NCBI GenBank assembly: GCA_002698305.1
Contig: NZWR01000005.1
Span: forward strand, 66,047-130,046
Source: Candidatus Campbellbacteria bacterium
Lineage (GTDB): Bacteria > Patescibacteriota > Minisyncoccia > Phycocordibacterales > UBA1006
Direction: 5' to 3'
DNA: 64,000 nucleotides
Shown here: positions 2,940 through 29,570 of the stretch, piece after piece
Numbering within the stretch: the stretch's first letter is position 1
How the letters are laid out: every line of letters starts with the position of its first letter
The notes under the pieces: model-generated
What the model was told of the DNA's origin: nothing
Seen by the model: the letters and a program-made list of their open reading frames with translations, nothing else
The model's database searches: none
Made by a program: the position numbers and the translations under genes

Positions 2940-3629
2940 ATGACACCTTACAAGAAAAAAAAGAGAAAAGAACGAATTCAAAAAATGCTTAAGGTTTTTA
3001 AAAAGATGTTTCCTGATCCAATTTCTGAACTTAATTATACGACTGACTTTGAATTTCTTGTTGCGGTTATTCTTTCAGCGCAATGTACTGATAAACGTGT
3101 AAACATTGTTACGGAAAAATTATTTAAAAAATATCCAAGGATTCAAGATTACGCACAAGCTGACATAAATGAATTTGAACAAGATATCTTCTCAACAGGA
3201 TTTTATCGCAACAAGGCAAAAAATGTTATTGCAGCAGCCAAAATGGTATTAGATGAATTTAACGGAGAATTACCTAAAAATTTAAAAGATCTAGAGCGCA
3301 TACCTGGAGCCGGACATAAAACTGCAAACGTTGTGCTTTCTAATTTATACGACATTCATGAAGGTATTGCCATTGATACCCATGCAATCCGTATTGCGAG
3401 AAAATTTGATCTTGTTGATCCACCTTATACACCAGTATCTATAGAGCGAGACCTTATGGAACTAGTACCTCAATCAGAATGGGGGAACATGAACCACTAC
3501 CTGGTACTATATGGTCGCTACCACGCACCAGCCCATGCGAAAGAAGTGCATGATGAACTTACCAAGATTTATCCTAAAGCAGCATATAAGGTTGATCCGC
3601 TTCCTAAAAAAATATCTGATAGAATATAG
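2940..3629 (+). CDS. nth: Endonuclease III-type HhH-GPD DNA glycosylase/lyase (no Fe-S cysteine cluster)
   Basis: HhH-GPD motifs LERIPGAGHKTANVVL (catalytic Lys) and IAIDTHAIRIARK (catalytic Asp). The C-terminal tail contains no Cys. Confidence 0.85.
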   Translation: MTPYKKKKRKERIQKMLKVFKKMFPDPISELNYTTDFEFLVAVILSAQCTDKRVNIVTEKLFKKYPRIQDYAQADINEFEQDIFSTGFYRNKAKNVIAAAKMVLDEFNGELPKNLKDLERIPGAGHKTANVVLSNLYDIHEGIAIDTHAIRIARKFDLVDPPYTPVSIERDLMELVPQSEWGNMNHYLVLYGRYHAPAHAKEVHDELTKIYPKAAYKVDPLPKKISDRI

Positions 3630-3631
3630 GT

Positions 3632-5002
3632 ATGTTAATTACATCTATATCAGGTATACGGGGAACCATTGGCGGAACTCCGCATGAAAATCTAACGCCA
3701 GTTGATATTGTAGGGTTTATTTCTGCATACGGGACCTGGCTGCAATCCCGATATTCTTCTCCGCGCGTGGTAATAGGGCGTGATGGGCGAGCTTCTGGGA
3801 ATATGATTCTTGGTATCGCTGTACAAACACTGATAAGTCTAGGGATAGATGTTGTTAATCTTGATTATGCTACTACACCAACGGTTGAGATGGAGGTCAT
3901 TCGAAGAGAGGCAAGCGGCGGTCTTATCATTACAGCCAGTCACAATCCAAAACCATACAATGGAATTAAGATGCTTAACGATAAAGGGGAGTTTCTTTCA
4001 TTAAAAGACGGGGAGTTAATTTTAAATATAAAAAATAAAGGAGACTATAGCTTTGCTGATGTTGATAGTTTAGGTAAAGAAAGTAAATCCTATAATCATA
4101 CAAAAGATCATATAGACGATATTCTGAATCTTGATTTAGTTGACGCTGAACTTGTTCGTTCAAAAAATTATACGGTGTGTGTAGACGCTATTAATTCAGT
4201 AGGAGGTCTTGCGGTTCCGATGTTGCTTAAAAAAATGGGGGTAGAGGTTGTTGGCCTTTATTGTGAGGTCAATGGTGATTTTCAACATGAACCCGAACCT
4301 CTTGAAAAAAATCTCGGAGAACTTATGAGTCTTGTTACTAAAACACATGCTGACCTAGGAATAGCGGTAGACCCAGATGTTGATAGGCTTGTATTAGTGG
4401 ATGAGAAGGGTCAAATAATTAATGAAGAATACGGCATTGTATTAGCTGCTGATTATGTGCTATCACAGACTGCTGGACCAACGGTTTCTAATCTCTCATC
4501 ATCACAGGCATTGGAAGATTTAACTACGCAGTATGGTAAAGAGTACAGCGCATCAGCTGTTGGAGAAAAAAATGTCGTCGAAAAAATGAAGGAAATAAAT
4601 GCTGTTATCGGAGGAGAGGGGAGCGGAGGTATTATTTACCCGGAACTTCATTATGGGCGAGACGCGTTAGTTGGTATTGCATTGATACTGAGTTTTATGG
4701 CAAAAGAAGATACTACTATTTCAACTTTACGTGATAGATACCAAGATTATTTTATGGTGAAAGATAAGCTTGAACTAGAGGATAGAGATAGTATCCCTGG
4801 TTTACTTGATGATTTAGCAGAAAATACTGATGGGCTAGTGTCACGGGTTGATGGCCTAAAAATCTCATTTGAAAATTCATGGGTACATATTCGTCCATCA
4901 AATACAGAACCAATATTAAGAATTATTTCCGAGGCACGAACCGAGACTGAAACTCTTTCTTTGGTTGATAAATATAAAGACCGAATTCTTTCTCTGATGT
5001 AA
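3632..5002 (+). CDS. glmM: Phosphohexomutase (phosphoglucosamine mutase / phosphomannomutase family)
   Basis: Active-site loop TASHNPKPYNGIK and metal loop GIAVDPDVDRL. 456 aa. Substrate assignment is an inference. Confidence 0.8.
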   Translation: MLITSISGIRGTIGGTPHENLTPVDIVGFISAYGTWLQSRYSSPRVVIGRDGRASGNMILGIAVQTLISLGIDVVNLDYATTPTVEMEVIRREASGGLIITASHNPKPYNGIKMLNDKGEFLSLKDGELILNIKNKGDYSFADVDSLGKESKSYNHTKDHIDDILNLDLVDAELVRSKNYTVCVDAINSVGGLAVPMLLKKMGVEVVGLYCEVNGDFQHEPEPLEKNLGELMSLVTKTHADLGIAVDPDVDRLVLVDEKGQIINEEYGIVLAADYVLSQTAGPTVSNLSSSQALEDLTTQYGKEYSASAVGEKNVVEKMKEINAVIGGEGSGGIIYPELHYGRDALVGIALILSFMAKEDTTISTLRDRYQDYFMVKDKLELEDRDSIPGLLDDLAENTDGLVSRVDGLKISFENSWVHIRPSNTEPILRIISEARTETETLSLVDKYKDRILSLM

Positions 5003-5021
5003 TTATGTATAATGGTTTTAT

Positions 5022-5462
5022 ATGAATAAAAATATTCAAAAAGCACGGAAAAACAAAAATGTACGTCTTATTGTCCTTTTGGTTATTATCGCTATTGCTG
5101 CAGGTATGTGGTGGTGGGGTGATAAAACTGACAATAATGTATTAAAAACAGGAGCAATCGTTGCTGGTGGAGCTGCTGGTATTGGAGCTGGACTTGAAGT
5201 AGCAGACAAAGATTTCGACTTGCAAAGATTATGGGAAACAGGGTCACTCAAAAAGTCACTATTGGAACGTGATGCAGAAGGTAACCTTATTAATCTTGAG
5301 CAAATTTGTGATGCACAAGATCAAGGATTCTATGACTATAATTGTGATGATTTTACTTCACAAGAAGAAGCACAGCGCGTATATGAAAAATGTGACACAG
5401 ATGTAAATCGCCTTGATGGTGACAATGATGGAATGGTGTGTGAACATTTACCTCAAAAATAA
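5022..5462 (+). CDS. Membrane-anchored protein with C-terminal Excalibur Ca-binding domain
   Basis: N-terminal TM helix. C-terminus [37 protein letters not shown] matches the Excalibur DxDxDGxxCE pattern. Confidence 0.6.
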
Positions 5463-5660: not shown

Positions 5661-6038
5661 ATGTTAAAACTTATTCACTATTTTTTTAGAGCTAAGGGTA
5701 TTAAAGAATCATTTGATCATCCTGATGAATTTATAAAAAATACCTCATTAGGATTTATTGAGGGGTATTTTGTAACAGCTGGGATTGTTCTGTCACTGCT
5801 TACAATAGCCTCTCTCTCTATTGGGTATTATTTTTCACTATCATTTTTCGTTGTGGTTGGTTATATTTTTCTTGTTATTGCTGTAATCACTGCTGTACTC
5901 TACCTTAGAATACGCAAACTTATTACGCGATTATCACAAAGGGCAGGGGAGAGAGCAAGGAAGACCATGACACGTGCAAAAAATACTATCAATGTGGAAT
6001 CGCGAGTTGTAGTTGAATCAAAGAAATATGAAGAATAG
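5661..6038 (+). CDS. Hypothetical membrane protein
   Basis: 125 aa with two predicted TM helices and a basic tail. Confidence 0.45.
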   Translation: MLKLIHYFFRAKGIKESFDHPDEFIKNTSLGFIEGYFVTAGIVLSLLTIASLSIGYYFSLSFFVVVGYIFLVIAVITAVLYLRIRKLITRLSQRAGERARKTMTRAKNTINVESRVVVESKKYEE

Positions 6039-23294: not shown

Positions 23295-24153
23295 TGTTAT
23301 TTTTCTGAATGTTATACACAACACGTGTTTGATACGGAATTTCGATTTTATGTTGCTCAAAAGCTTTTTTGAGCCGTTTTCGCATCTCCCCAGCTACAAG
23401 ATACTGCTGTTTTGGATATACCTTACCTAAAATGCGTGCTTTGATTGCGTTATCTGAGAAATCATCAATTCGCAGAAAATGTGGAGCTTCAATAATATGA
23501 TGATTAAATTCAGGGTCATCATATAGTTCCTGCCCTACAGAATCAATAACCTCTTTCAGATGTTCTACTTTGGTGTTATAGCCAACATCAACAATGATAT
23601 CTACCATTGAATAATCCATTGATTTATTTGATGCGACTTTTATTTCACCGTTTGGAATATAGTGAACAGTTCCGTTTAGTTGCCGTAGCTTTGTAACACG
23701 TAAGGTCATTCCCTCAACCGTTCCATAGTGTTCACCAACCTGCACCACGTCCCCAATTCTGAACTGATTTTCAGCTATAATAAAAAGACCGTTGATAATA
23801 TCTTTTACAAGTGATTGTGAACCAAAACCAAGCGCTACTCCTAAAATCCCAGCCCCAGTTAACAGTGGCGCAATAGGGACCCCAAGAGAATCAAGAAGTA
23901 CCAAGAATGCAGCAATCCAAATAAGAATCCCAAAGAAATTTTGTGAGATTTTTATTAGCGTATCCTCTCTTTTTTTCTCTTCTTCTGGTGAAATAAATGA
24001 GCCGCGTGGGATCATTCTGCGTACAATCCGCGTGATGATTGAGTTCATAAAATGCGACACTACCCACGTTACTATAAAAACCAAGAGAACAATCAACGCA
24101 TTCTCAACTAACCACAGTTCAACTGTGGTTATTATGTTTGTTAAACTTTCCAT
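23278..24153 (-). CDS. Mechanosensitive ion channel, MscS family
   Basis: Three TM helices followed by FRIGDVVQVGEHYGTVEGMTLRVTKLR, the MscS beta-domain signature. Confidence 0.85.
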   Translation of the reverse strand: MESLTNIITTVELWLVENALIVLLVFIVTWVVSHFMNSIITRIVRRMIPRGSFISPEEEKKREDTLIKISQNFFGILIWIAAFLVLLDSLGVPIAPLLTGAGILGVALGFGSQSLVKDIINGLFIIAENQFRIGDVVQVGEHYGTVEGMTLRVTKLRQLNGTVHYIPNGEIKVASNKSMDYSMVDIIVDVGYNTKVEHLKEVIDSVGQELYDDPEFNHHIIEAPHFLRIDDFSDNAIKARILGKVYPKQQYLVAGEMRKRLKKAFEQHKIEIPYQTRVVYNIQKNNNDEGK

Positions 24154-24187
24154 AGCCTAAATTGTAACATATTCACGATGAGCAATC

Positions 24188-24955
24188 CTATTGTTGTTGC
24201 CGCTTCCACTCATACATAGCAATTGCTGCAGCTACTGATACATTGAGAGACTCAATAGTATGCTCCATAGGAATAGAAACTATGAAATCAGCGTTATCGC
24301 GAACTTTTTCAGACACCCCCTTCCCTTCAGATCCTACAACAAGCACGGTTGCTGTATCAAATGTATGATTCCAAAGAGAAAGTGGCTTTTTCGCGTGTTC
24401 GTCCATATCAATTGCGGTAACCCAAAACCGTGCCTCCTTAAGTTTGCTAATAGCTTGGTTAATATTAGAAACACGTACTACCGGAACATGTATCAATGCA
24501 CCTGCTGATGTTTTATACACAGTCCCGTTAATAGGTGCTTGTCTGTCTTTTGAGACAATAACACCAGCAACCCCAAGCGCTGCTGCACTGCGCAGAATAG
24601 CCCCAAAATTGTGAGTATCTTCAATATGATCAAGAACAAGAACACATGGATTGCTTTCAGTATCAAGTTGATCAAACCACTTATCAAAATCAACATAATC
24701 TGCCTGCTTTAAAAGAGCGATGACCCCTTGATCGTTAACGTCACCGACGTACTCTTCTATTTTCGCCTTGGTCACTGGGTTAACAGGAATTTTATGATCT
24801 TTAGCATAGGCTTTAAGTTCCTTAAAGTCATTTTCGTATTTTGCCATCGTATTTGATACGAATACGCGCATGACATTATCTGGATTCCGCATAAGTTGTT
24901 CTTCAACTGGCTTTTTACCAAAAATATAAAAATGAGATGTTTTTTTTCGTTTCAT
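24188..24955 (-). CDS. rlmB: SpoU/TrmH-class 23S rRNA 2'-O-ribose methyltransferase (RlmB-like)
   Basis: N-terminal L30e-like substrate-binding domain plus SPOUT motifs LDHIEDTHNFGAILRSA, VVGSEGKGVS and ESLNVSVAAAIAMYE. Confidence 0.8.
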   Translation of the reverse strand: MKRKKTSHFYIFGKKPVEEQLMRNPDNVMRVFVSNTMAKYENDFKELKAYAKDHKIPVNPVTKAKIEEYVGDVNDQGVIALLKQADYVDFDKWFDQLDTESNPCVLVLDHIEDTHNFGAILRSAAALGVAGVIVSKDRQAPINGTVYKTSAGALIHVPVVRVSNINQAISKLKEARFWVTAIDMDEHAKKPLSLWNHTFDTATVLVVGSEGKGVSEKVRDNADFIVSIPMEHTIESLNVSVAAAIAMYEWKRQQQ

Positions 24956-25008
24956 GGTATGTAGTGTATATGATTTTCTTGTTTTTGGTATAGGAAGCTA
25001 TTAAATAC

Positions 25009-25038
25009 AAAAAAACAATACTCAAGGTATTGTTTTTT
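25009..25038. terminator. Hairpin with flanking A/T runs (native terminator downstream of the tRNA-Ala site)
   Basis: aaaaaacaatac-tcaag-gtattgtttttt. Confidence 0.45.
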
Positions 25039-25039
25039 G

Positions 25040-25090
25040 CGTTTCGAGTGGACCTGACAGGACTCGAACCTGCCACCTCGTCAGTGCAAG
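25040..25090 (-). repeat. att site copy 1: orphan 3' half of tRNA-Ala (51-bp direct repeat)
   Basis: Identical at 51/51 positions to 28220..28270 (period 3180 bp). Corresponds to tRNA positions 32-73 plus 9 nt of trailer. No matching 5' half follows. Confidence 0.9.
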
Positions 25091-25117
25091 GTTTGTCTAG
25101 AGGCTTATTTGGCTCTC

Positions 25118-25140
25118 AAACCTTATTTTATAAGGGTTTT
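25118..25140. repeat. Hairpin motif, inverted copy of the 28191..28218 hairpin
   Basis: The reverse complement of aaaccttattttataagggtttt is AAACCCTTATAAAATAAGGTTT. This matches AAACCCTTATAAAATAAGGGTTT at 28194..28216 except for one missing G. Confidence 0.5.
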
Positions 25141-25315
25141 GGAAAATTCTGAGGTATCTATTTGCCTTATTTTTTACTAGCCCGTCAGGAACCACTTTTC
25201 TCTTGGTATTACAACATTCAATACAGGTTAAATCTGATTAAATATCGACATCATAATTATATCATATTGTCTTCATCTACATTGTAGCTTGATTTAGTAA
25301 CCAGAAGATACTGTC

Positions 25316-25344
25316 AATAAAAAGACCTGCATTTCTGCAGATCT
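25316..25344 (-). terminator. Intrinsic terminator of the int-ncRNA-RT unit
   Basis: Minus strand reads AGATCTGCA-GAAA-TGCAGGTCT (9-bp stem with one G:U) followed by TTTTTATT. Lies 7 nt after the RT stop. Confidence 0.75.
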
Positions 25345-25350
25345 TAGATT

Positions 25351-26250
25351 TCACTTAATTTTTGTTTTAAATTCTTGATAAAGCTCTAGAACTTTTTGCT
25401 CAGTTCTATTGAGCTTCCTTCCTTTCGATACAGATAAGAACAATCCCATCTTCCCATGAATTATTTGTGGGCTAATATTAGTTTTCTCTTTAAGTACAAG
25501 ATTTAGTAAACCTCTAATATGAGATAAATAGTGTCTTGGTGTAAATATCACATAAGAGCTACTAGTTTTTCTTAATCCTATACCATTTATTTCTATAGCT
25601 TTTTTATGTAAATCACCAAGATGTGTCTTCTTAATGTTTATCTGGAACTCACCCTCCCTTACGATATTTAAGAGTTTCTTCCTCTTTTTTCTACCAATAG
25701 GAAATTCAGAAGAGAATGTTAAGTCATCTAAGTAACGAGAGTAGGTTATGGAATGCATGTCACAATACTTTCTTAACGATTCATCAATTTTTTTTTCGCA
25801 ATAAATATTAAAGAGTAGAGGAGAAAGTGGTGCTCCTACAACAAGCCCTCCATCTTCACTCATACAATATCGTAGAAAAAATTGCTCTATCATTTCCTCT
25901 TCAATGATTTCTATAAAATACTCTCGAGTAGCTTCTATGAGTAAATCCAATTTAACATTCCCATAAGCGTTAGAAATATCTGTCATAAACCAATATCGTG
26001 GATAAAACGGTTTATGAGATGACTTTGTTTGACGCTTGTGACGCATTAGGTTTCTTTTAGGTGAATTCCCTGGCAAACCACCAGCAGCACTTGGTAAAAT
26101 AATTTCTTGTTTTTTAAACCAGTTCAAAATTTCGTAATGTATTTCTTTCATGGGTTCATTTGGCACCCATATTTTTCTTTTCTTAGTCTGACCACTAATG
26201 TTATTAACATCACTGATATAAACCTTCTGAAATGTGGGTGTTGAATCCAT
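25351..26250 (-). CDS. Reverse transcriptase, compact retron/UG-like (RT domain only, 299 aa)
   Basis: RT motifs in order: KRKIWVPNEPMKEIHYEIL (RT1), LPGNSPKRNLMRH (NAxxH-like, RT2), WFMTDISNAYGNV (RT3), GLVVGAPLSPLLFNIYCEKKID (RT4), YSRYLDDLTFSS (RT5, YxDD), INIKKTHL (RT6) and IEINGIGLRK (position of the retron VTG motif). No maturase, endonuclease or other appended domain. Confidence 0.85.
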   Translation of the reverse strand: MDSTPTFQKVYISDVNNISGQTKKRKIWVPNEPMKEIHYEILNWFKKQEIILPSAAGGLPGNSPKRNLMRHKRQTKSSHKPFYPRYWFMTDISNAYGNVKLDLLIEATREYFIEIIEEEMIEQFFLRYCMSEDGGLVVGAPLSPLLFNIYCEKKIDESLRKYCDMHSITYSRYLDDLTFSSEFPIGRKKRKKLLNIVREGEFQINIKKTHLGDLHKKAIEINGIGLRKTSSSYVIFTPRHYLSHIRGLLNLVLKEKTNISPQIIHGKMGLFLSVSKGRKLNRTEQKVLELYQEFKTKIK

Positions 26251-26303
26251 TTTATATAGTTTTAGTTTTTTAAATTAAAACATATATTAATTTATAAGTA
26301 AAT

Positions 26304-26328
26304 AAGCCCACCATGTTCTGGTGGGCTT
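26304..26328 (-). terminator. GC-rich hairpin between the ncRNA region and the RT start (attenuator/terminator or structural element)
   Basis: Minus strand reads AAGCCCACCA-GAACA-TGGTGGGCTT (10-bp perfect stem) followed by ATTTACTT. The U-tract is weak. Confidence 0.35.
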
Positions 26329-26339
26329 TGATTCAGTGA

Positions 26340-26555
26340 GGAAGGTCTGAAGGACGAGTAAGATTCTGAGATGAGGTCGTTTATTATCTCTAATAAGAAA
26401 GAAAAAAGAAAAACGTACTCCTTTTCATAAAAGGTTTCCTTAAGAAAAACCTTATTTTGTCACATGGGTGGCAAAATGATCTCATACCATAACTTATAAA
26501 GCTGGCATTGTGTAGGTAGGAAATAGGGCTCCTCTGCCTTTGTTTCAAACCTTCC
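26340..26555 (-). ncRNA. Candidate RT-associated structured ncRNA (msr-msd-like template RNA)
   Basis: Minus-strand GGAAGGTTTGAA (26555..26544) pairs with TTCAGACCTTCC (26351..26340): 12 bp with one G:U, enclosing about 190 nt. Internal hairpins: ATTTTGCCAC-CCAT-GTGACAAAAT (26477..26454), AAGGTTT...AAACCTT / CCTTTT-ATG-AAAAGG (26453..26420). A 5' hairpin GTCCGA-TTC-TCGGAC lies at 26573..26559. The region is directly downstream of a consensus promoter and upstream of the RT. No folding or expression data. Confidence 0.4.
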
Positions 26556-26600
26556 TTTGTCCGAGAATCGGACGGTTTATTTTCATTTGGGTTCATTATG

Positions 26601-26629
26601 ATTATAACTACTTTCAGTGTTATATGCAA
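26601..26629 (-). promoter_or_regulatory. Sigma-70-type promoter reading toward the ncRNA region and RT
   Basis: Minus strand: TTGCAT (26629..26624), 17-nt spacer, TATAAT (26606..26601). Lies 10 nt downstream of the integrase stop. Confidence 0.5.
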
Positions 26630-26638
26630 TTAATAATT

Positions 26639-27571
26639 TTAAAATGAAAGCTTATCAATATACACCCGCGCATTCTCAGAGCCAATAGATCTCACATACC
26701 GATCCGTCATCGTCACACTGCTGTGCCCAAGTGCTGACTTAATACTCACAATATCTGCATTGTTTTGTGCGAGAGAGGTAGCGAAGGTGTGGCGCAAGCT
26801 ATGAGTAGAAAAAGAAACTCCAGAAAGTGCTTTATACTTTTCTACCCAGGCTTTAAGTCCGTGAGTAGTGAGCCCAGTGTCTTGTTTACTTGAGATAAAT
26901 AGATACGCTGCTTTAGATTTTCGTTTACACAGTAACTTGAAATACGCTCTTAGGGAGAGTGTTAAGAGTGGGTTCATCGGAATATGTCGCCCTCTTCTTG
27001 ATTTAGATGACTGGGCTTTGATAAAAAGGAGCCGCTGGTCGAAATCTATATCAAAGGTTCGAAGGCCAAGTAGTTCCCCTCTTCGTATACCGGTATAGAT
27101 CAGAGTGTAGAAGAGAGCGATATTACGTGCTCGCAAAAAATCATTCTGTGGGTTAGCTAGTGAGATGGTAGCGATTAATGACTCTATTTGCTTTTTAGAG
27201 AGTGCTTTAACGTCACTGTAGTGTGGCTGCTGAGGCTTGGGTACCTTGTTGTAGAGTGTGCCAGGCGTGAGGTATCCTTGATGCTCTAGCCACTTAAAGA
27301 AGGCGTTTAGTTTTGAATGGTAGGTGTAGATGGTTGATCGCTTCACTTCCCTGCTTTCTTCCTGTGCTCTTCGGTGAATACGTTTATGGAACTCGACGAT
27401 GATGCTTGGTGACAGATGGTCTAGTGACTGTACCTCCGGCATTGTTTTGAGAAAGTTCTTCAGTACATCTCGATAGCTTCTGAGGGTTTCTGATTGTAAG
27501 CATCGAGCGAACTGAGCTTCTTGTAAATAGACGTAGCAGTAGTAATTAATTTGGTTTGATGTGTTATTCAT
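26639..27571 (-). CDS. int: Tyrosine recombinase / phage-type integrase
   Basis: N-terminal SAM-like core-binding domain. Catalytic region TGIRRGELLGL (Arg I), HSLRHTFATSL (HxxR) and LGHSSVTMTDRYV (His, Tyr nucleophile). Confidence 0.9.
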   Translation of the reverse strand: MNNTSNQINYYCYVYLQEAQFARCLQSETLRSYRDVLKNFLKTMPEVQSLDHLSPSIIVEFHKRIHRRAQEESREVKRSTIYTYHSKLNAFFKWLEHQGYLTPGTLYNKVPKPQQPHYSDVKALSKKQIESLIATISLANPQNDFLRARNIALFYTLIYTGIRRGELLGLRTFDIDFDQRLLFIKAQSSKSRRGRHIPMNPLLTLSLRAYFKLLCKRKSKAAYLFISSKQDTGLTTHGLKAWVEKYKALSGVSFSTHSLRHTFATSLAQNNADIVSIKSALGHSSVTMTDRYVRSIGSENARVYIDKLSF

Positions 27572-27657
27572 ACCTCTGTAGTGTATGAATAGTTTAGTGG
27601 AAATGAATGAGGGGTTATAGTATCAAACATAGATACAATTTTTGATATACTAGTTTT

Positions 27658-28146
27658 ATGCTGAACTTATTAAAACAAATAGCAGATAAATTTTATATTA
27701 ATCTTTTGAACAAGAATGATTCGGATAGTTTTAAATCTGTCATAAAAGAGTCAACAACAGGTGACATCGCAGGAAGAGATTTATATAAAACTTCCAATAC
27801 AGAAAAACTCTTATCTAATATTGAAAAGAAAATATTGAAAATACTATATCGCGAGTATCAAGATCGGGGTAAAAATGGATTTAAAATACGTAATACCCAC
27901 AGTGAATTAGAAATTGATGATGGTTTTGACTTAACTTGTGTAAATGATAGTGAATACATAAAAACAGAAGGTGATTTTTATAAAATGACACCCCATGGTA
28001 TTAGATATATGGATAATCTTACACCAATAGATTTATCACAAATAATGCTACCGAAGGAGGAGGGAGAAAGGGAATTTATTATGCGGCAACAAAGACAACG
28101 ATTTGAGCAGAACAGAGCGAATTTCAAAAAGAACTCTAGTAGATAA
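27658..28146 (+). CDS. Hypothetical protein (orphan cargo of the element, divergent from int)
   Basis: 162-aa ORF preceded by an extended -10-like TGATATACT. A central KILKILYREYQDRGKNGFKI segment is faintly wHTH-like, and the tail is basic. No family recognised. Confidence 0.5.
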   Translation: MLNLLKQIADKFYINLLNKNDSDSFKSVIKESTTGDIAGRDLYKTSNTEKLLSNIEKKILKILYREYQDRGKNGFKIRNTHSELEIDDGFDLTCVNDSEYIKTEGDFYKMTPHGIRYMDNLTPIDLSQIMLPKEEGEREFIMRQQRQRFEQNRANFKKNSSR

Positions 28147-28190
28147 AAGACGTGGTGCAAAAAATTGATACTTTCCAAGCTTGAGCAAGC

Positions 28191-28218
28191 AAAAAACCCT
28201 TATAAAATAAGGGTTTTT
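28191..28218. terminator. Hairpin with A/T flanks abutting the att core (element-borne terminator for tRNA-Ala and the orphan ORF)
   Basis: aaaaaacccttat-aaa-ataagggttttt. Ends 2 nt before the 51-bp core. Confidence 0.55.
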
Positions 28219-28219
28219 A

Positions 28220-28270
28220 CGTTTCGAGTGGACCTGACAGGACTCGAACCTGCCACCTCGTCAGTGCAAG
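28220..28270 (-). repeat. att site copy 2 (51-bp direct repeat inside the intact tRNA-Ala)
   Basis: Identical to 25040..25090. Confidence 0.9.
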
Positions 28271-28302
28271 TGACGCGCTCTAGCCAGATGAGCTACAGGC
28301 CC
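28229..28302 (-). tRNA. tRNA-Ala(UGC)
   Basis: Reverse complement is GGGCCTGTAGCTCATCTGGCTAGAGCGCGTCACTTGCACTGACGAGGTGGCAGGTTCGAGTCCTGTCAGGTCCA. G3:U70 alanine identity pair, anticodon loop CTTGCAC, discriminator A73, no encoded CCA. Confidence 0.9.
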
Positions 28303-28444
28303 CAATACAGCAAAAACTGCTGTGTTGTAAATTAGTGAAGGCGCAAGCCTTCCAAAGAACAACTGGAAAAGATTATATAGGCTAGTATGAAATATGCAAG
28401 TATCTTGTTGTACGAAGAGTAAGAATGGAATAGTCAATCCTTTG

Positions 28445-29497
28445 TTAGTTGCTCAGCAACTTACCTAATGAACGGGTCTTTTTTATTTTGAGGAAAAATA
28501 CATTAAGTATTGCAAGGAGTGGAATAGCGAGGATCATCCCTGTTACTCCCCATATAGTGTTTCCAACTATAACGGCAAGAATAACGAAAAAGGGATTTAA
28601 CTGTACTTCATGACCTATAACATATGGTTGTAGAATATAGCTCTCGATAAACTGCGTTAAGCTAAAAGAAATAATTATCCCTACAAGCACAAAAGTTTCT
28701 CCATTACTTAGATACCCAAGTACAACAGCGAGAAGAAAAGCAATAATATTACCGATATAGGGAATAAGCGTAAGAAAACTTGCAAGAACGGCAATAAGTA
28801 TAAAACTATCTACCCCAGATATACCGAGCCCAATACTATATATGACAATAAGAAGTCCGATGAGTTTAGTTTTCCCGTACAGATATGCGATAGTTGTGTT
28901 CATGCTCTCTGAAAGTGTTGAACGCAATGTTTTTTCTTTTGAGTTTTTCACTAGTGAAAGTAAGAACTTCTTGAAAGAGCTACGATTAAGAAGGATGAAG
29001 AACAGGTAGATGAATGTCAAAAGATAGCTTCCAATTGCTCCAAAAATGATTTGCGTAAGATATGTTGCGTTATTCGTGTTAAGGTACTCTTCTTGAATTT
29101 CATTGATTGAAGTCGTTTTAAATACGTTATCAAGCGTCTTGCTCTCAATAGGTGTATTTTGTGTAAGATAGGTTTTAAATTCTGATAGCTTTTCTTCTGT
29201 TGTTTCAGATATCGTACTCCATTTTTCAGTAATGTTGTTTACTTGCAGTGTAACAACCCCTAGGAATACAAGTGAAATGATGAATACACCTAAAGTCGGT
29301 AGAATTGCTGATACCGCTCTACTGTGCGTAATTTTCTGAAGGTAACGTGCAAACGGTAATAGTGCAAGAGCAAGTAATAAAGCAATGATAAGAGGCGCTA
29401 GTAAGCTTTTACCAACAATCAGCCCATAGATTATTAACGTAAGTGAAGCCAAAACAGCGAACATATTAATCAAAACATTTTGATGCAGGTGAAACAT
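28445..29497 (-). CDS. AI-2E family transporter (PerM/UPF0118)
   Basis: 350 aa with about 8 TM helices. C-terminal LNPFFVILAVIVGNTIWGVTGMILAIPLLAIL is typical of the family. Confidence 0.8.
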   Translation of the reverse strand: MFHLHQNVLINMFAVLASLTLIIYGLIVGKSLLAPLIIALLLALALLPFARYLQKITHSRAVSAILPTLGVFIISLVFLGVVTLQVNNITEKWSTISETTEEKLSEFKTYLTQNTPIESKTLDNVFKTTSINEIQEEYLNTNNATYLTQIIFGAIGSYLLTFIYLFFILLNRSSFKKFLLSLVKNSKEKTLRSTLSESMNTTIAYLYGKTKLIGLLIVIYSIGLGISGVDSFILIAVLASFLTLIPYIGNIIAFLLAVVLGYLSNGETFVLVGIIISFSLTQFIESYILQPYVIGHEVQLNPFFVILAVIVGNTIWGVTGMILAIPLLAILNVFFLKIKKTRSLGKLLSN

Positions 29498-29570
29498 ATT
29501 TTTTATTATACGTGAAATAAATAAGAGTAAAATAGAGGTGCTCTGAAGGTTTTTAGGGTATGCTTATGGT

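Follow-up and report, generated by a model that had tools for sequence, protein, structure and literature searches.

Retrons on integrase-bearing elements at tRNA or tRNA-related genes are already known. Retron Ec73 is carried by retronphage phiR73, a P4-like cryptic prophage in the tRNA gene selC (Sun, Inouye and Inouye 1991, as cited in PMC11701397), and the Vibrio retrons Vmi1 and Vpa1 lie on dusA-integrating islands with integrases (PMC11701397). Here, we analysed 64,000 nucleotides of a marine Candidatus Campbellbacteria bacterium (assembly GCA_002698305.1, contig NZWR01000005.1, positions 66,047 to 130,046), a stretch that we call the window and that adds one such case: a small element in a tRNA-Ala gene, with a tyrosine integrase and a reverse transcriptase (RT). 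Like phiR73 and the Vibrio islands, it has retron cargo, a site-specific integrase of its own and direct repeats at its attachment (att) sites; the target is a tRNA gene (selC) in phiR73, a tRNA-modification gene (dusA) in the islands and tRNA-Ala in the window. The carrier spans 3.2 kb, whereas the Vibrio islands and phiR73 (about 12.7 kb) are larger, and we know of no smaller retron-carrying integrative element. It also differs from both in having a retron without effector gene, a host from the candidate phyla radiation (CPR) and a short XerC/D-like integrase with relatives in Flavobacteriia. The best explanation, to which we give a probability of roughly 80%, is that independently distributed modules make up the locus: an integrative element at tRNA-Ala, a retron as its cargo and a small open reading frame (ORF162).

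Retrons made of msr-msd and RT alone, called orphan, have been described in a branch of clade 2 that includes Ec107 and in clade 11 (Mestre et al. 2020, PMC7736814). They share with the window an RT beside a structured non-coding RNA (ncRNA) closed by arms a1 and a2, and no specific associated protein. Yet, the orphan clades are essentially limited to Gammaproteobacteria (clade 2 branch) and Actinobacteria (clade 11) (PMC7736814), whereas the family of the window is almost entirely from CPR and scores weakly on all retron RT models of PADLOC and NCBIfam. Typical retrons also differ from this family, which has I-N-G in place of V-T-G and an ncRNA that is sometimes downstream of the RT or duplicated. 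The relation to published retron clades was judged by profiles, motifs and hosts. In the retron literature that we searched we met no mention of an orphan-retron family in CPR.

The carrier itself resembles tycheposons, integrative elements that target tRNAs and carry cargo in marine Prochlorococcus (bioRxiv 10.1101/2020.12.28.424599). The likeness lies in the marine streamlined hosts, the inward-reading tyrosine recombinase near one end, the direct repeats of partial tRNAs, the tandem arrays at one tRNA, the optional small replication module and the swappable cargo. What makes an element a tycheposon is a lineage-specific integrase together with a set of hallmark genes (bioRxiv 10.1101/2020.12.28.424599). 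Our comparison is one of architecture alone; the elements compared here live in CPR and probably in Flavobacteriia, and the copy in the window is without replication module.

DIRS elements of eukaryotes have, like the window, an RT and a tyrosine recombinase in one co-directional unit. In DIRS the two are co-inherited, the RT comes with RNase H, and there are terminal repeats with an internal complementary region. In contrast, the RT of the window has neither a co-inherited recombinase nor RNase H, and the element has no terminal repeats other than the att copies derived from the tRNA. Judged from its sequence, the locus is not a bacterial DIRS-like retroelement, and the retron would be exchangeable cargo on an integrase-driven element.

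An integrative element at tRNA-Ala and its cargo slot

The mobile element measures 3,180 bp and is bracketed by direct repeats of 57 nt, at 25034-25090 and 28214-28270, with 56 of the 57 positions identical. The full unit thus runs from 25034 to 28270; the interval 25316-27657, singled out by the first-pass annotation, spans only the integrase and RT genes. Its content is ORF162, the tyrosine integrase, a non-coding gap of 388 nt and an RT of 299 amino acids. The first-pass annotation had described just such an element, made of integrase, ncRNA, RT and one small reading frame, with integrase and RT co-directional and with no recognisable gene for an excisionase or for replication. All of this stands: both genes are on the minus strand, 388 nt apart, the only other reading frame is ORF162, and neither Pfam nor NCBIfam nor PADLOC recognised an excisionase or replication gene in the element. 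The backbone comprises the following features.

25034..25090, no strand: attR, displaced tRNA-Ala 3' end (43 nt) plus 14 nt
25091..25327, minus: conserved non-coding 3' arm of the backbone, presumed attP arm, 86-89% nucleotide identity to L092
25322..25345, minus: terminator-like hairpin just past the RT stop, at the right cargo end; homology to L092 resumes at 25327
25328..26637, minus: cargo cassette (promoter, ncRNA, RT and terminator), with no counterpart in the L092 backbone, which is otherwise ~90% identical
26639..27571, minus: tyrosine recombinase/integrase, 310 amino acids, XerC/D-like (Pfam Phage_integrase 4e-30 and a SAM-like N-terminal domain)
27658..28146, plus: ORF162, small protein with a winged-helix-like core (PADLOC WH_III-A, E 0.008), in the variable 'left' position of the backbone
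28193..28217, minus: element-supplied terminator hairpin, now 3' of tRNA-Ala (sequence and repeat analysis)
28214..28270, no strand: attL, repeat copy within the reconstituted tRNA-Ala
28228..28302, minus: intact tRNA-Ala(tgc), the integration target (ARAGORN; Rfam tRNA 61.5 bits)

As expected of an element that targets a tRNA gene, the integrase is intact, the direct repeats derive from the 3' end of a tRNA and the tRNA is reconstituted. The right copy of the repeat consists of the last 43 nt of tRNA-Ala and 14 nt more, and on the host side of attR a hairpin, CAATACcttgaGTATTG, followed by seven T, resembles the original terminator of the tRNA. A search of Rfam at E≤1 returned tRNA and no other family. 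The integrase has all its catalytic residues (R163, K190, H257, R260, H283 and Y292). Its gene has 43% GC and 0.43 GC at third codon positions (GC3), against 33% and 0.26 for the RT gene and 37% GC for the host; the RT, ORF162 and host genes all fall within 30-40% GC and 0.25-0.32 GC3. The higher values of the integrase gene relative to its neighbours suggest that it came from a different lineage than the rest of the locus. Its named relatives are from Flavobacteriia (e.g. P0072, of Polaribacter), and among GenBank phages we found only distant integrases (<30% identity) and likewise only distant RTs.

The evidence for a cargo slot comes from related backbones. The closest homologue of the integrase (P0066, 94% identical) sits on an element without RT (L092/L093). 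By blastn this element matches the window at 86-90% nucleotide identity over the integrase gene (27621-26638), over the 3' arm with att (25327-25048) and over att with 70 nt more (28270-28145), and it has no match across 26637-25328, i.e. ncRNA and RT, nor to ORF162. The 3' arm, 25091-25327, aligns to positions 4874-5153 and again to 879-1115 of L092, with 86-89% identity. Where the window has ncRNA and RT, L092/L093 have an unrelated ORF of 421 amino acids, and the junctions between the two are sharp: they fall directly after the integrase stop codon and directly after the terminator hairpin of each cargo. In elements with integrases 59% identical to that of the window, the slot holds a NYN nuclease (L094/L095; PADLOC HEC-09, 7e-9) or a DUF4238 protein (L097), and the same tRNA-Ala att fragment follows each cargo. 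Other relatives in a metagenome survey (L092a, L103, L106, L107 and L109) have att only 190-235 nt after the integrase gene, which is an empty slot. Among about a dozen elements of the integrase family with a readable slot, only the window has an RT there. Homologous backbones in other hosts share the 43-nt tRNA-Ala att (93-100% identity), tandem arrays included. The RT-less element with a 94% identical integrase, the other cargoes and the empty slots together support the view that various cargoes can replace one another in a slot 3' of the integrase gene, the retron being one of them, and that the backbone is self-sufficient. Anatomy and comparison thus show an integration at tRNA-Ala that restores the tRNA, a slot for cargo 3' of the integrase gene and, in it, a self-contained retron cassette with a promoter-like element and terminators of its own.

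Some further observations concern the backbones. The edges of the slot share an ATTGACA-like motif, at 26624-26632 (ATTGCAT) and 25311-25318 (ATTGACAG) in the window and at 3479-3492 (ATTGACAT) and about 4874-4890 (ATTGACAG) in L092; these borders may be -35 promoter elements or a site of cassette exchange. Within the 3' arm, a block of ~30 nt at about 25165-25196, which reads GTGGTTCCTGACGGGCTAGTAAAAAATAAGG on the minus strand and is preceded by TATAAT, shows one difference among the three closest copies of the backbone; it could hold arm sites for the integrase or a small RNA. Many relatives of the integrase have next to them, in tandem, another element with its own integrase and with RepO-like and helix-turn-helix (HTH) genes. 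Specifically, in L092 (1-10477), L102, L105, L107-L110, L114 and L115 a second, more distant integrase is encoded just past the att fragment, on elements with RepO-like, HTH and RuvC-like genes, i.e. tandem elements at one att; in L107, L108 and L110, RepO-like, HTH and RuvC-like genes lie upstream of the first integrase, in opposite orientation.

By the mechanism that we propose, the tyrosine integrase would recombine attP with the 3' end of tRNA-Ala, so that the 3' end of the tRNA is rebuilt and a new terminator is supplied, and the integrase alone would perform both integration and excision. The slot between the integrase stop and the ~240-nt 3' arm would hold promoter, ncRNA, a leaky hairpin, RT and terminator, and ORF162 would occupy a second variable position. 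The first-pass annotation had weighed this locus between a minimal hitchhiking defence cassette and an element whose propagation is coupled to reverse transcription. For the latter one might imagine a DIRS-like cycle, in which a transcript from end to end is copied into DNA by the RT and the recombinase inserts the circular cDNA at tRNA-Ala. The co-directional integrase and RT genes, with no terminator between the integrase stop and the ncRNA promoter, fit such a cycle, as does the lack of a recognised excisionase or replication gene. Yet, the backbone occurs with ~90% identity, with a 94% identical integrase and with the same att in elements that have no RT, and copies without cargo exist. 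ORF162 is on the opposite strand, hence a single transcript cannot cover the whole element, and there is one terminator-like hairpin after the ncRNA and another after the RT gene. The RT is of retron type, with 299 amino acids, no RNase H domain and a conserved ncRNA template of its own, and none of the 35 loci with homologues of the RT (see below) is linked to a tyrosine recombinase. We therefore regard a DIRS-like cycle as highly improbable. RT-coupled propagation is likewise not supported: in the loci examined, homologues of the RT are unlinked to integrases and the integrase family works at att without RT.

A retron-type RT with its own ncRNA

The RT and the cargo upstream of it have the features listed here, all on the minus strand.

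25351..26250: retron-type RT, 299 amino acids, YLDD (RVT_1 4e-15; PADLOC retron RT models up to 9e-25)
26300..26594: retron-like ncRNA of ~290 nt, ends approximate (fold z, covariance model match and covariation)
26575-26560: 5' hairpin, first part in the order of the ncRNA
26556-26544: a2 arm of the ncRNA
26481-26426: two-hairpin core of the ncRNA (covariance model R1, 45.1 bits, E 9e-10)
26415-26392: polypyrimidine block of the ncRNA
26377-26372: ACCTCA motif of the ncRNA
26351-26339: a1 arm of the ncRNA, then CACTGA
26304..26328: terminator-like hairpin between the ncRNA and the RT reading frame (compensatory changes relative to L091)
26601..26629: promoter-like TTGCAT-17-TATAAT at the left cargo end, 9 nt past the integrase stop

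The best matches of the RT in PADLOC are all retron RT models (I-B with 9e-25, then III-A, II-A and VI), with scores far under those of members; likewise, the NCBIfam model of retron St85 gives 80 bits against a cutoff of 235. A profile of the RT family, built from 50 homologues, was compared with sequences of the PDB. It matches retrons Ec83 (4e-33) and Ec86 (2e-29), then Ec78, Ec67, Kva2 and Eco8, the retrons ranging from 1e-33 to 1e-13, whereas non-retron RTs match more weakly (2e-10 for a group II intron RT, 5e-9 for DRT2). Retron RTs have as hallmarks NAxxH in region X, with H the most conserved, and VTG in region Y, with G the most conserved (PMC7736814). Among the 50 sequences, region X keeps H71 in all and N67 in nearly all (the window reads NLMRH), and in region Y, I221-N-G223, G223 is invariant; the hallmark A of region X and V-T of region Y are not kept. 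Pfam finds RVT_1 only in the 299 amino acids, with no extra domain and no RNase H domain.

Other classes of RT were considered and rejected. A group II intron is at odds with the absence of any Rfam intron match, at gathering thresholds or at E≤1, and with 31 bits on NCBIfam group_II_RT_mat against a cutoff of 300. About 80% of the RTs of CPR are reported to belong to diversity-generating retroelements (PMC8632793). Such a retroelement was discarded here, as att is the only direct repeat in 24000-29500 and the RT profile favours retron RTs. DRT2 was set aside for its weaker profile match (5e-9, against 4e-33 for retron Ec83).

The gap between the integrase and RT genes folds well under shuffled controls (z = -4.7). 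Homologous loci show a common architecture: ACCTCA(GCG), then 25-40 nt, the 3' arm of a long-range stem and (C)GCTGA, with the 5' arm of this closing stem ~200 nt upstream of the 3' arm. The sequences of the arms are unrelated among loci. Inside the closing stem are two adjacent hairpins, in which 17 of the 18 core pairs show compensatory changes in an alignment of ten loci; the ten segments were chosen by eye and then tested with a covariance model. The model of the core has a single match in the 64-kb window, at 26426-26481 on the minus strand. It also matches eight RT loci outside its training set, on the strand of the RT every time, and has no match in the control set, which was about 100 kb of integrase loci. 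When copies were anchored on these matches, which are independent of the stem, a closing stem scoring at least 11.5 was found in 17 of 23 ncRNA copies, the 5' arm ending about 30-45 nt before the core and a CGCTGA-like motif standing after the 3' arm. A test for perfect Watson-Crick stems, in upstream regions only, was weak (p≤0.04 in about 10 of 26 loci) because some stems contain G-U pairs and some ncRNAs lie downstream of the RT. The closest homologue of the RT is in a metagenomic locus (L091, 59% of amino acids identical). Its ncRNA shares long identical blocks with that of the window, every helix shows compensatory changes, and the indels between the two disrupt any reading frame. An ORF of 79 amino acids in the gap (26390-26629) is thus spurious, since these indels are not multiples of three; it has no Pfam match either. 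By the type of its RT and the architecture of its RNA, the unit has the make-up of a retron. By analogy with known retrons, the RT would bind the two-hairpin core of its own ncRNA, prime from the 2'-OH of a G close to the a2/a1 duplex and copy what lies upstream of a1, including the conserved ACCTCAGCG, into multicopy single-stranded DNA (msDNA).

The first-pass annotation had placed an internal promoter directly after the integrase gene. A candidate is there, with TTGCAT at 26629-26624 and TATAAT at 26606-26601 separated by 17 nt, starting 9 nt past the integrase stop codon (26641-26639), and its -35 region is conserved in L091. A scan for the consensus missed this site because TTGCAT matches TTGACA at only three of six positions. 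With this weak -35, the promoter past the integrase stop is a plausible candidate. In textbook retrons, msr-msd and ret are transcribed as one RNA. The hairpin between the ncRNA and the RT gene, of which similar ones stand between ncRNA and RT start in L001, L002, L004, L005 and L091, suggests an excess of ncRNA, with the RT expressed by read-through past the hairpin, which may set the ratio of ncRNA to RT.

Two side observations bear on the RNA. The conserved TCAGCG (in ACCTCAGCG) and CGCTGA are mutually complementary and bracket the a1 arm in about ten other loci; if they paired, the helix would run across the a1/a2 stem, and either a pseudoknot or an alternative fold would result. Both motifs are degenerate in the window (26372-26380 and 26333-26338), reading TCATCTCAG ... 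CACTGA. The 5' hairpin of the ncRNA, CGTCCGATTCTCGGAC, is identical in L091, and its reverse complement accounts for a terminator-like call on the plus strand at 26557-26575.

We surveyed 32 genome loci with homologues of the RT and L091, i.e. 33 loci and 354 kb, and two more loci (L198 and L199), which makes 35. Nearly all are from Patescibacteria/CPR. The first-pass annotation had proposed a check for consistent linkage of such RTs with tyrosine recombinases, and this linkage is absent: neither phmmer with the integrase of the window nor a hidden Markov model (HMM) of 66 integrase homologues (E≤1) found a tyrosine recombinase in the 33 loci, and the precomputed Pfam calls of L198 and L199 include no integrase. 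In the latter two, the RT cassette lies between uvrC and uvrA (L198, 6001-6894) and between nusG and rplK (L199, 6001-6954), with no mobility gene nearby. The annotation had also named, as what would refute RT-coupled propagation, homologues without integrases and next to effector genes. The first is what we found in all 35 loci and the second is not, for these RTs stand alone. There is no gene family shared among the neighbours in the 33 loci. The ten genes directly downstream of RTs that were tested encode MiaA, glutaredoxin, GreA, a sigma factor or proteins without assigned function, and none has a confident defence match in PADLOC; there are two weak ones (E 0.001-0.006), both to the MiaA-like protein of L021. 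Scans of IMG/VR with the profiles of the RT and of ORF162 returned no member of either family. The RT family is thus a stand-alone ('orphan') cassette of ncRNA and RT, almost entirely from CPR.

The arrangement of the cassette varies. The ncRNA is downstream of the RT in L014 (7042-7097), L023 (1163-1218), L009 (2202-2262), L006 (1683-1738) and L011 (7044-7099 and 7346-7403), and two tandem copies of the ncRNA core, about 270-350 nt apart, are found in L003, L008, L005 and L011. In L021 (Zambryskibacteria) a stand-alone cassette is flanked by a perfect direct repeat of 87 nt (4176-4262 and 5864-5950), made of the 5' end of miaA, and the insert includes a fragment of a DUF1653-like gene. The downstream copy belongs to an intact miaA with a diverged start supplied by the element (MQKLIV... 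versus MNNHKLIV...). This looks like an att-flanked insertion without integrase, which could be a decayed element, a case of mobilisation in trans, a Campbell-type integration of a circle or an artefact of assembly. A contig of 1,615 nt from Saccharibacteria (L023) has only RT and downstream ncRNA, and its ends (1-34 and 1582-1615) are identical over 34 nt; the unit of 1,581 nt must then be a circle, one copy of a tandem array or a stretch between copies of a longer repeat. The repeats of L021 and L023 hint that the cassette may move alone or may be the remnant of other small integrative elements. One might then speculate that ncRNA and RT, which in about 35 genomes lie by themselves among unrelated housekeeping genes, are a CPR retron lineage with no effector and with mobility of its own, here captured by an integrative element. 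We think this unlikely; if true, it would imply a route that has gone unrecognised (an integrase in trans, a circular intermediate) or an effector-free mechanism unlike that of known retrons.

ORF162, mobility and the role of the retron

ORF162 has no match in Pfam or NCBIfam. A word-indexed search returned ORF162 alone, while an exhaustive one gave 35 relatives of about 150-170 amino acids whose conserved core resembles a winged helix, and some proteins of the family have a C-terminal extension of ~100 amino acids. One might think of a tripartite retron in which ORF162 is the effector or accessory protein and the integrase merely separates the two halves. ORF162 accompanies the RT on all 19 contigs that carry the element (see below), and ORF162 as well as four of 30 members of its family have weak matches to the winged-helix accessory protein of type III-A retrons (E 0.008-0.001). 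Two members have N-terminal HNH nuclease domains of the type found in defence effectors (P0148 and P0165; PADLOC PDC-M68A, 7.5e-25, and SAVED_HNH). Yet, ORF162 lies 1.4 kb from the RT gene, on the opposite strand and beyond the integrase gene, and the family HMM found no ORF162-like gene in the other RT loci examined, nor in the integrase loci. The position of ORF162 is also variable in relatives, being taken by an SDH-type protease in L092 and by RepO-like, HTH and RuvC-like genes in L107, L108 and L110, and an AlphaFold2 model from the single sequence is uninformative (pLDDT 42). We consider a tripartite retron distinctly unlikely. ORF162 is rather a third independent module, which could act as regulator, as recombination directionality factor or, with low probability, as accessory protein of the retron.

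Nineteen marine metagenome contigs, from several data sets, carry the same element at this very site, with RTs 100% identical; together with the homologous backbones found elsewhere, this shows that the element is not a product of chance. A contig of 3,189 bp (L088) was considered as a circular form and rejected, as its length equals 3180 - 51 + 2 x 30, the outcome of a break in a k=31 de Bruijn graph at an exact repeat of 51 nt.

Several points weigh against our reading of the locus as a composite of a mobile element and a retron. No empty attB was found by exact look-up through the flanking SpoU/TrmH protein, all 19 contigs carrying the element, and no circular attP junction was found for the element of the window. 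The absence of integrases near homologues of the RT covers 1.6-13 kb of DNA per locus. The 5' arm of the ncRNA ends in G in about seven of 11 loci inspected, which suggests a branching G, in retrons a conserved base at the inner end of a2, and its placement is not uniform. The assignment of the promoter consists of one good -10 hexamer and a weak -35. Finally, there is no effector gene in the element nor beside any homologue of the RT examined, which bears on a role in defence.

The first of these points might mean that the element integrated once and is now a fixed relic, which differs from the composite reading only on current mobility. Occupation of one site in 19 of 19 marine contigs, with identical RTs and no empty site, fits a relic, and so does the lack of a recognisable excisionase. 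Yet, the integrase gene is intact with all catalytic residues, the att repeats are identical at 56 of 57 positions, and a copy of the backbone with about 90% identity exists in another host. That the hosts differ follows from their tRNA-Ala genes: that of L092 encodes CCA and that of the window does not. Such identity across hosts implies recent horizontal spread. Loss of mobility is thus a possibility that we keep in mind, on balance a rather unlikely one.

We return to the composite reading and to the role of the retron in it. The idea of a minimal hitchhiking defence cassette is supported as to structure, with ncRNA and RT in a swappable slot; its 'defence' part finds no effector to go with. 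Most likely the retron would serve in phage defence or in another conflict function, with an effector in trans or absent. Since no effector gene was found, we can only infer defence, weakly and by analogy, and it is the weakest step of our explanation.

The element is of interest for what it may teach about retrons and their carriers. With its 3.2 kb, it offers a compact natural system in which both the function of an integrase and the production of msDNA can be tested. An orphan retron family in CPR, with a defined ncRNA architecture and no effector, bears on the question of what orphan retrons do. And its carrier represents a family of tRNA-Ala elements with a precise slot for a single cassette, whose integrases link CPR and, apparently, Flavobacteriia.

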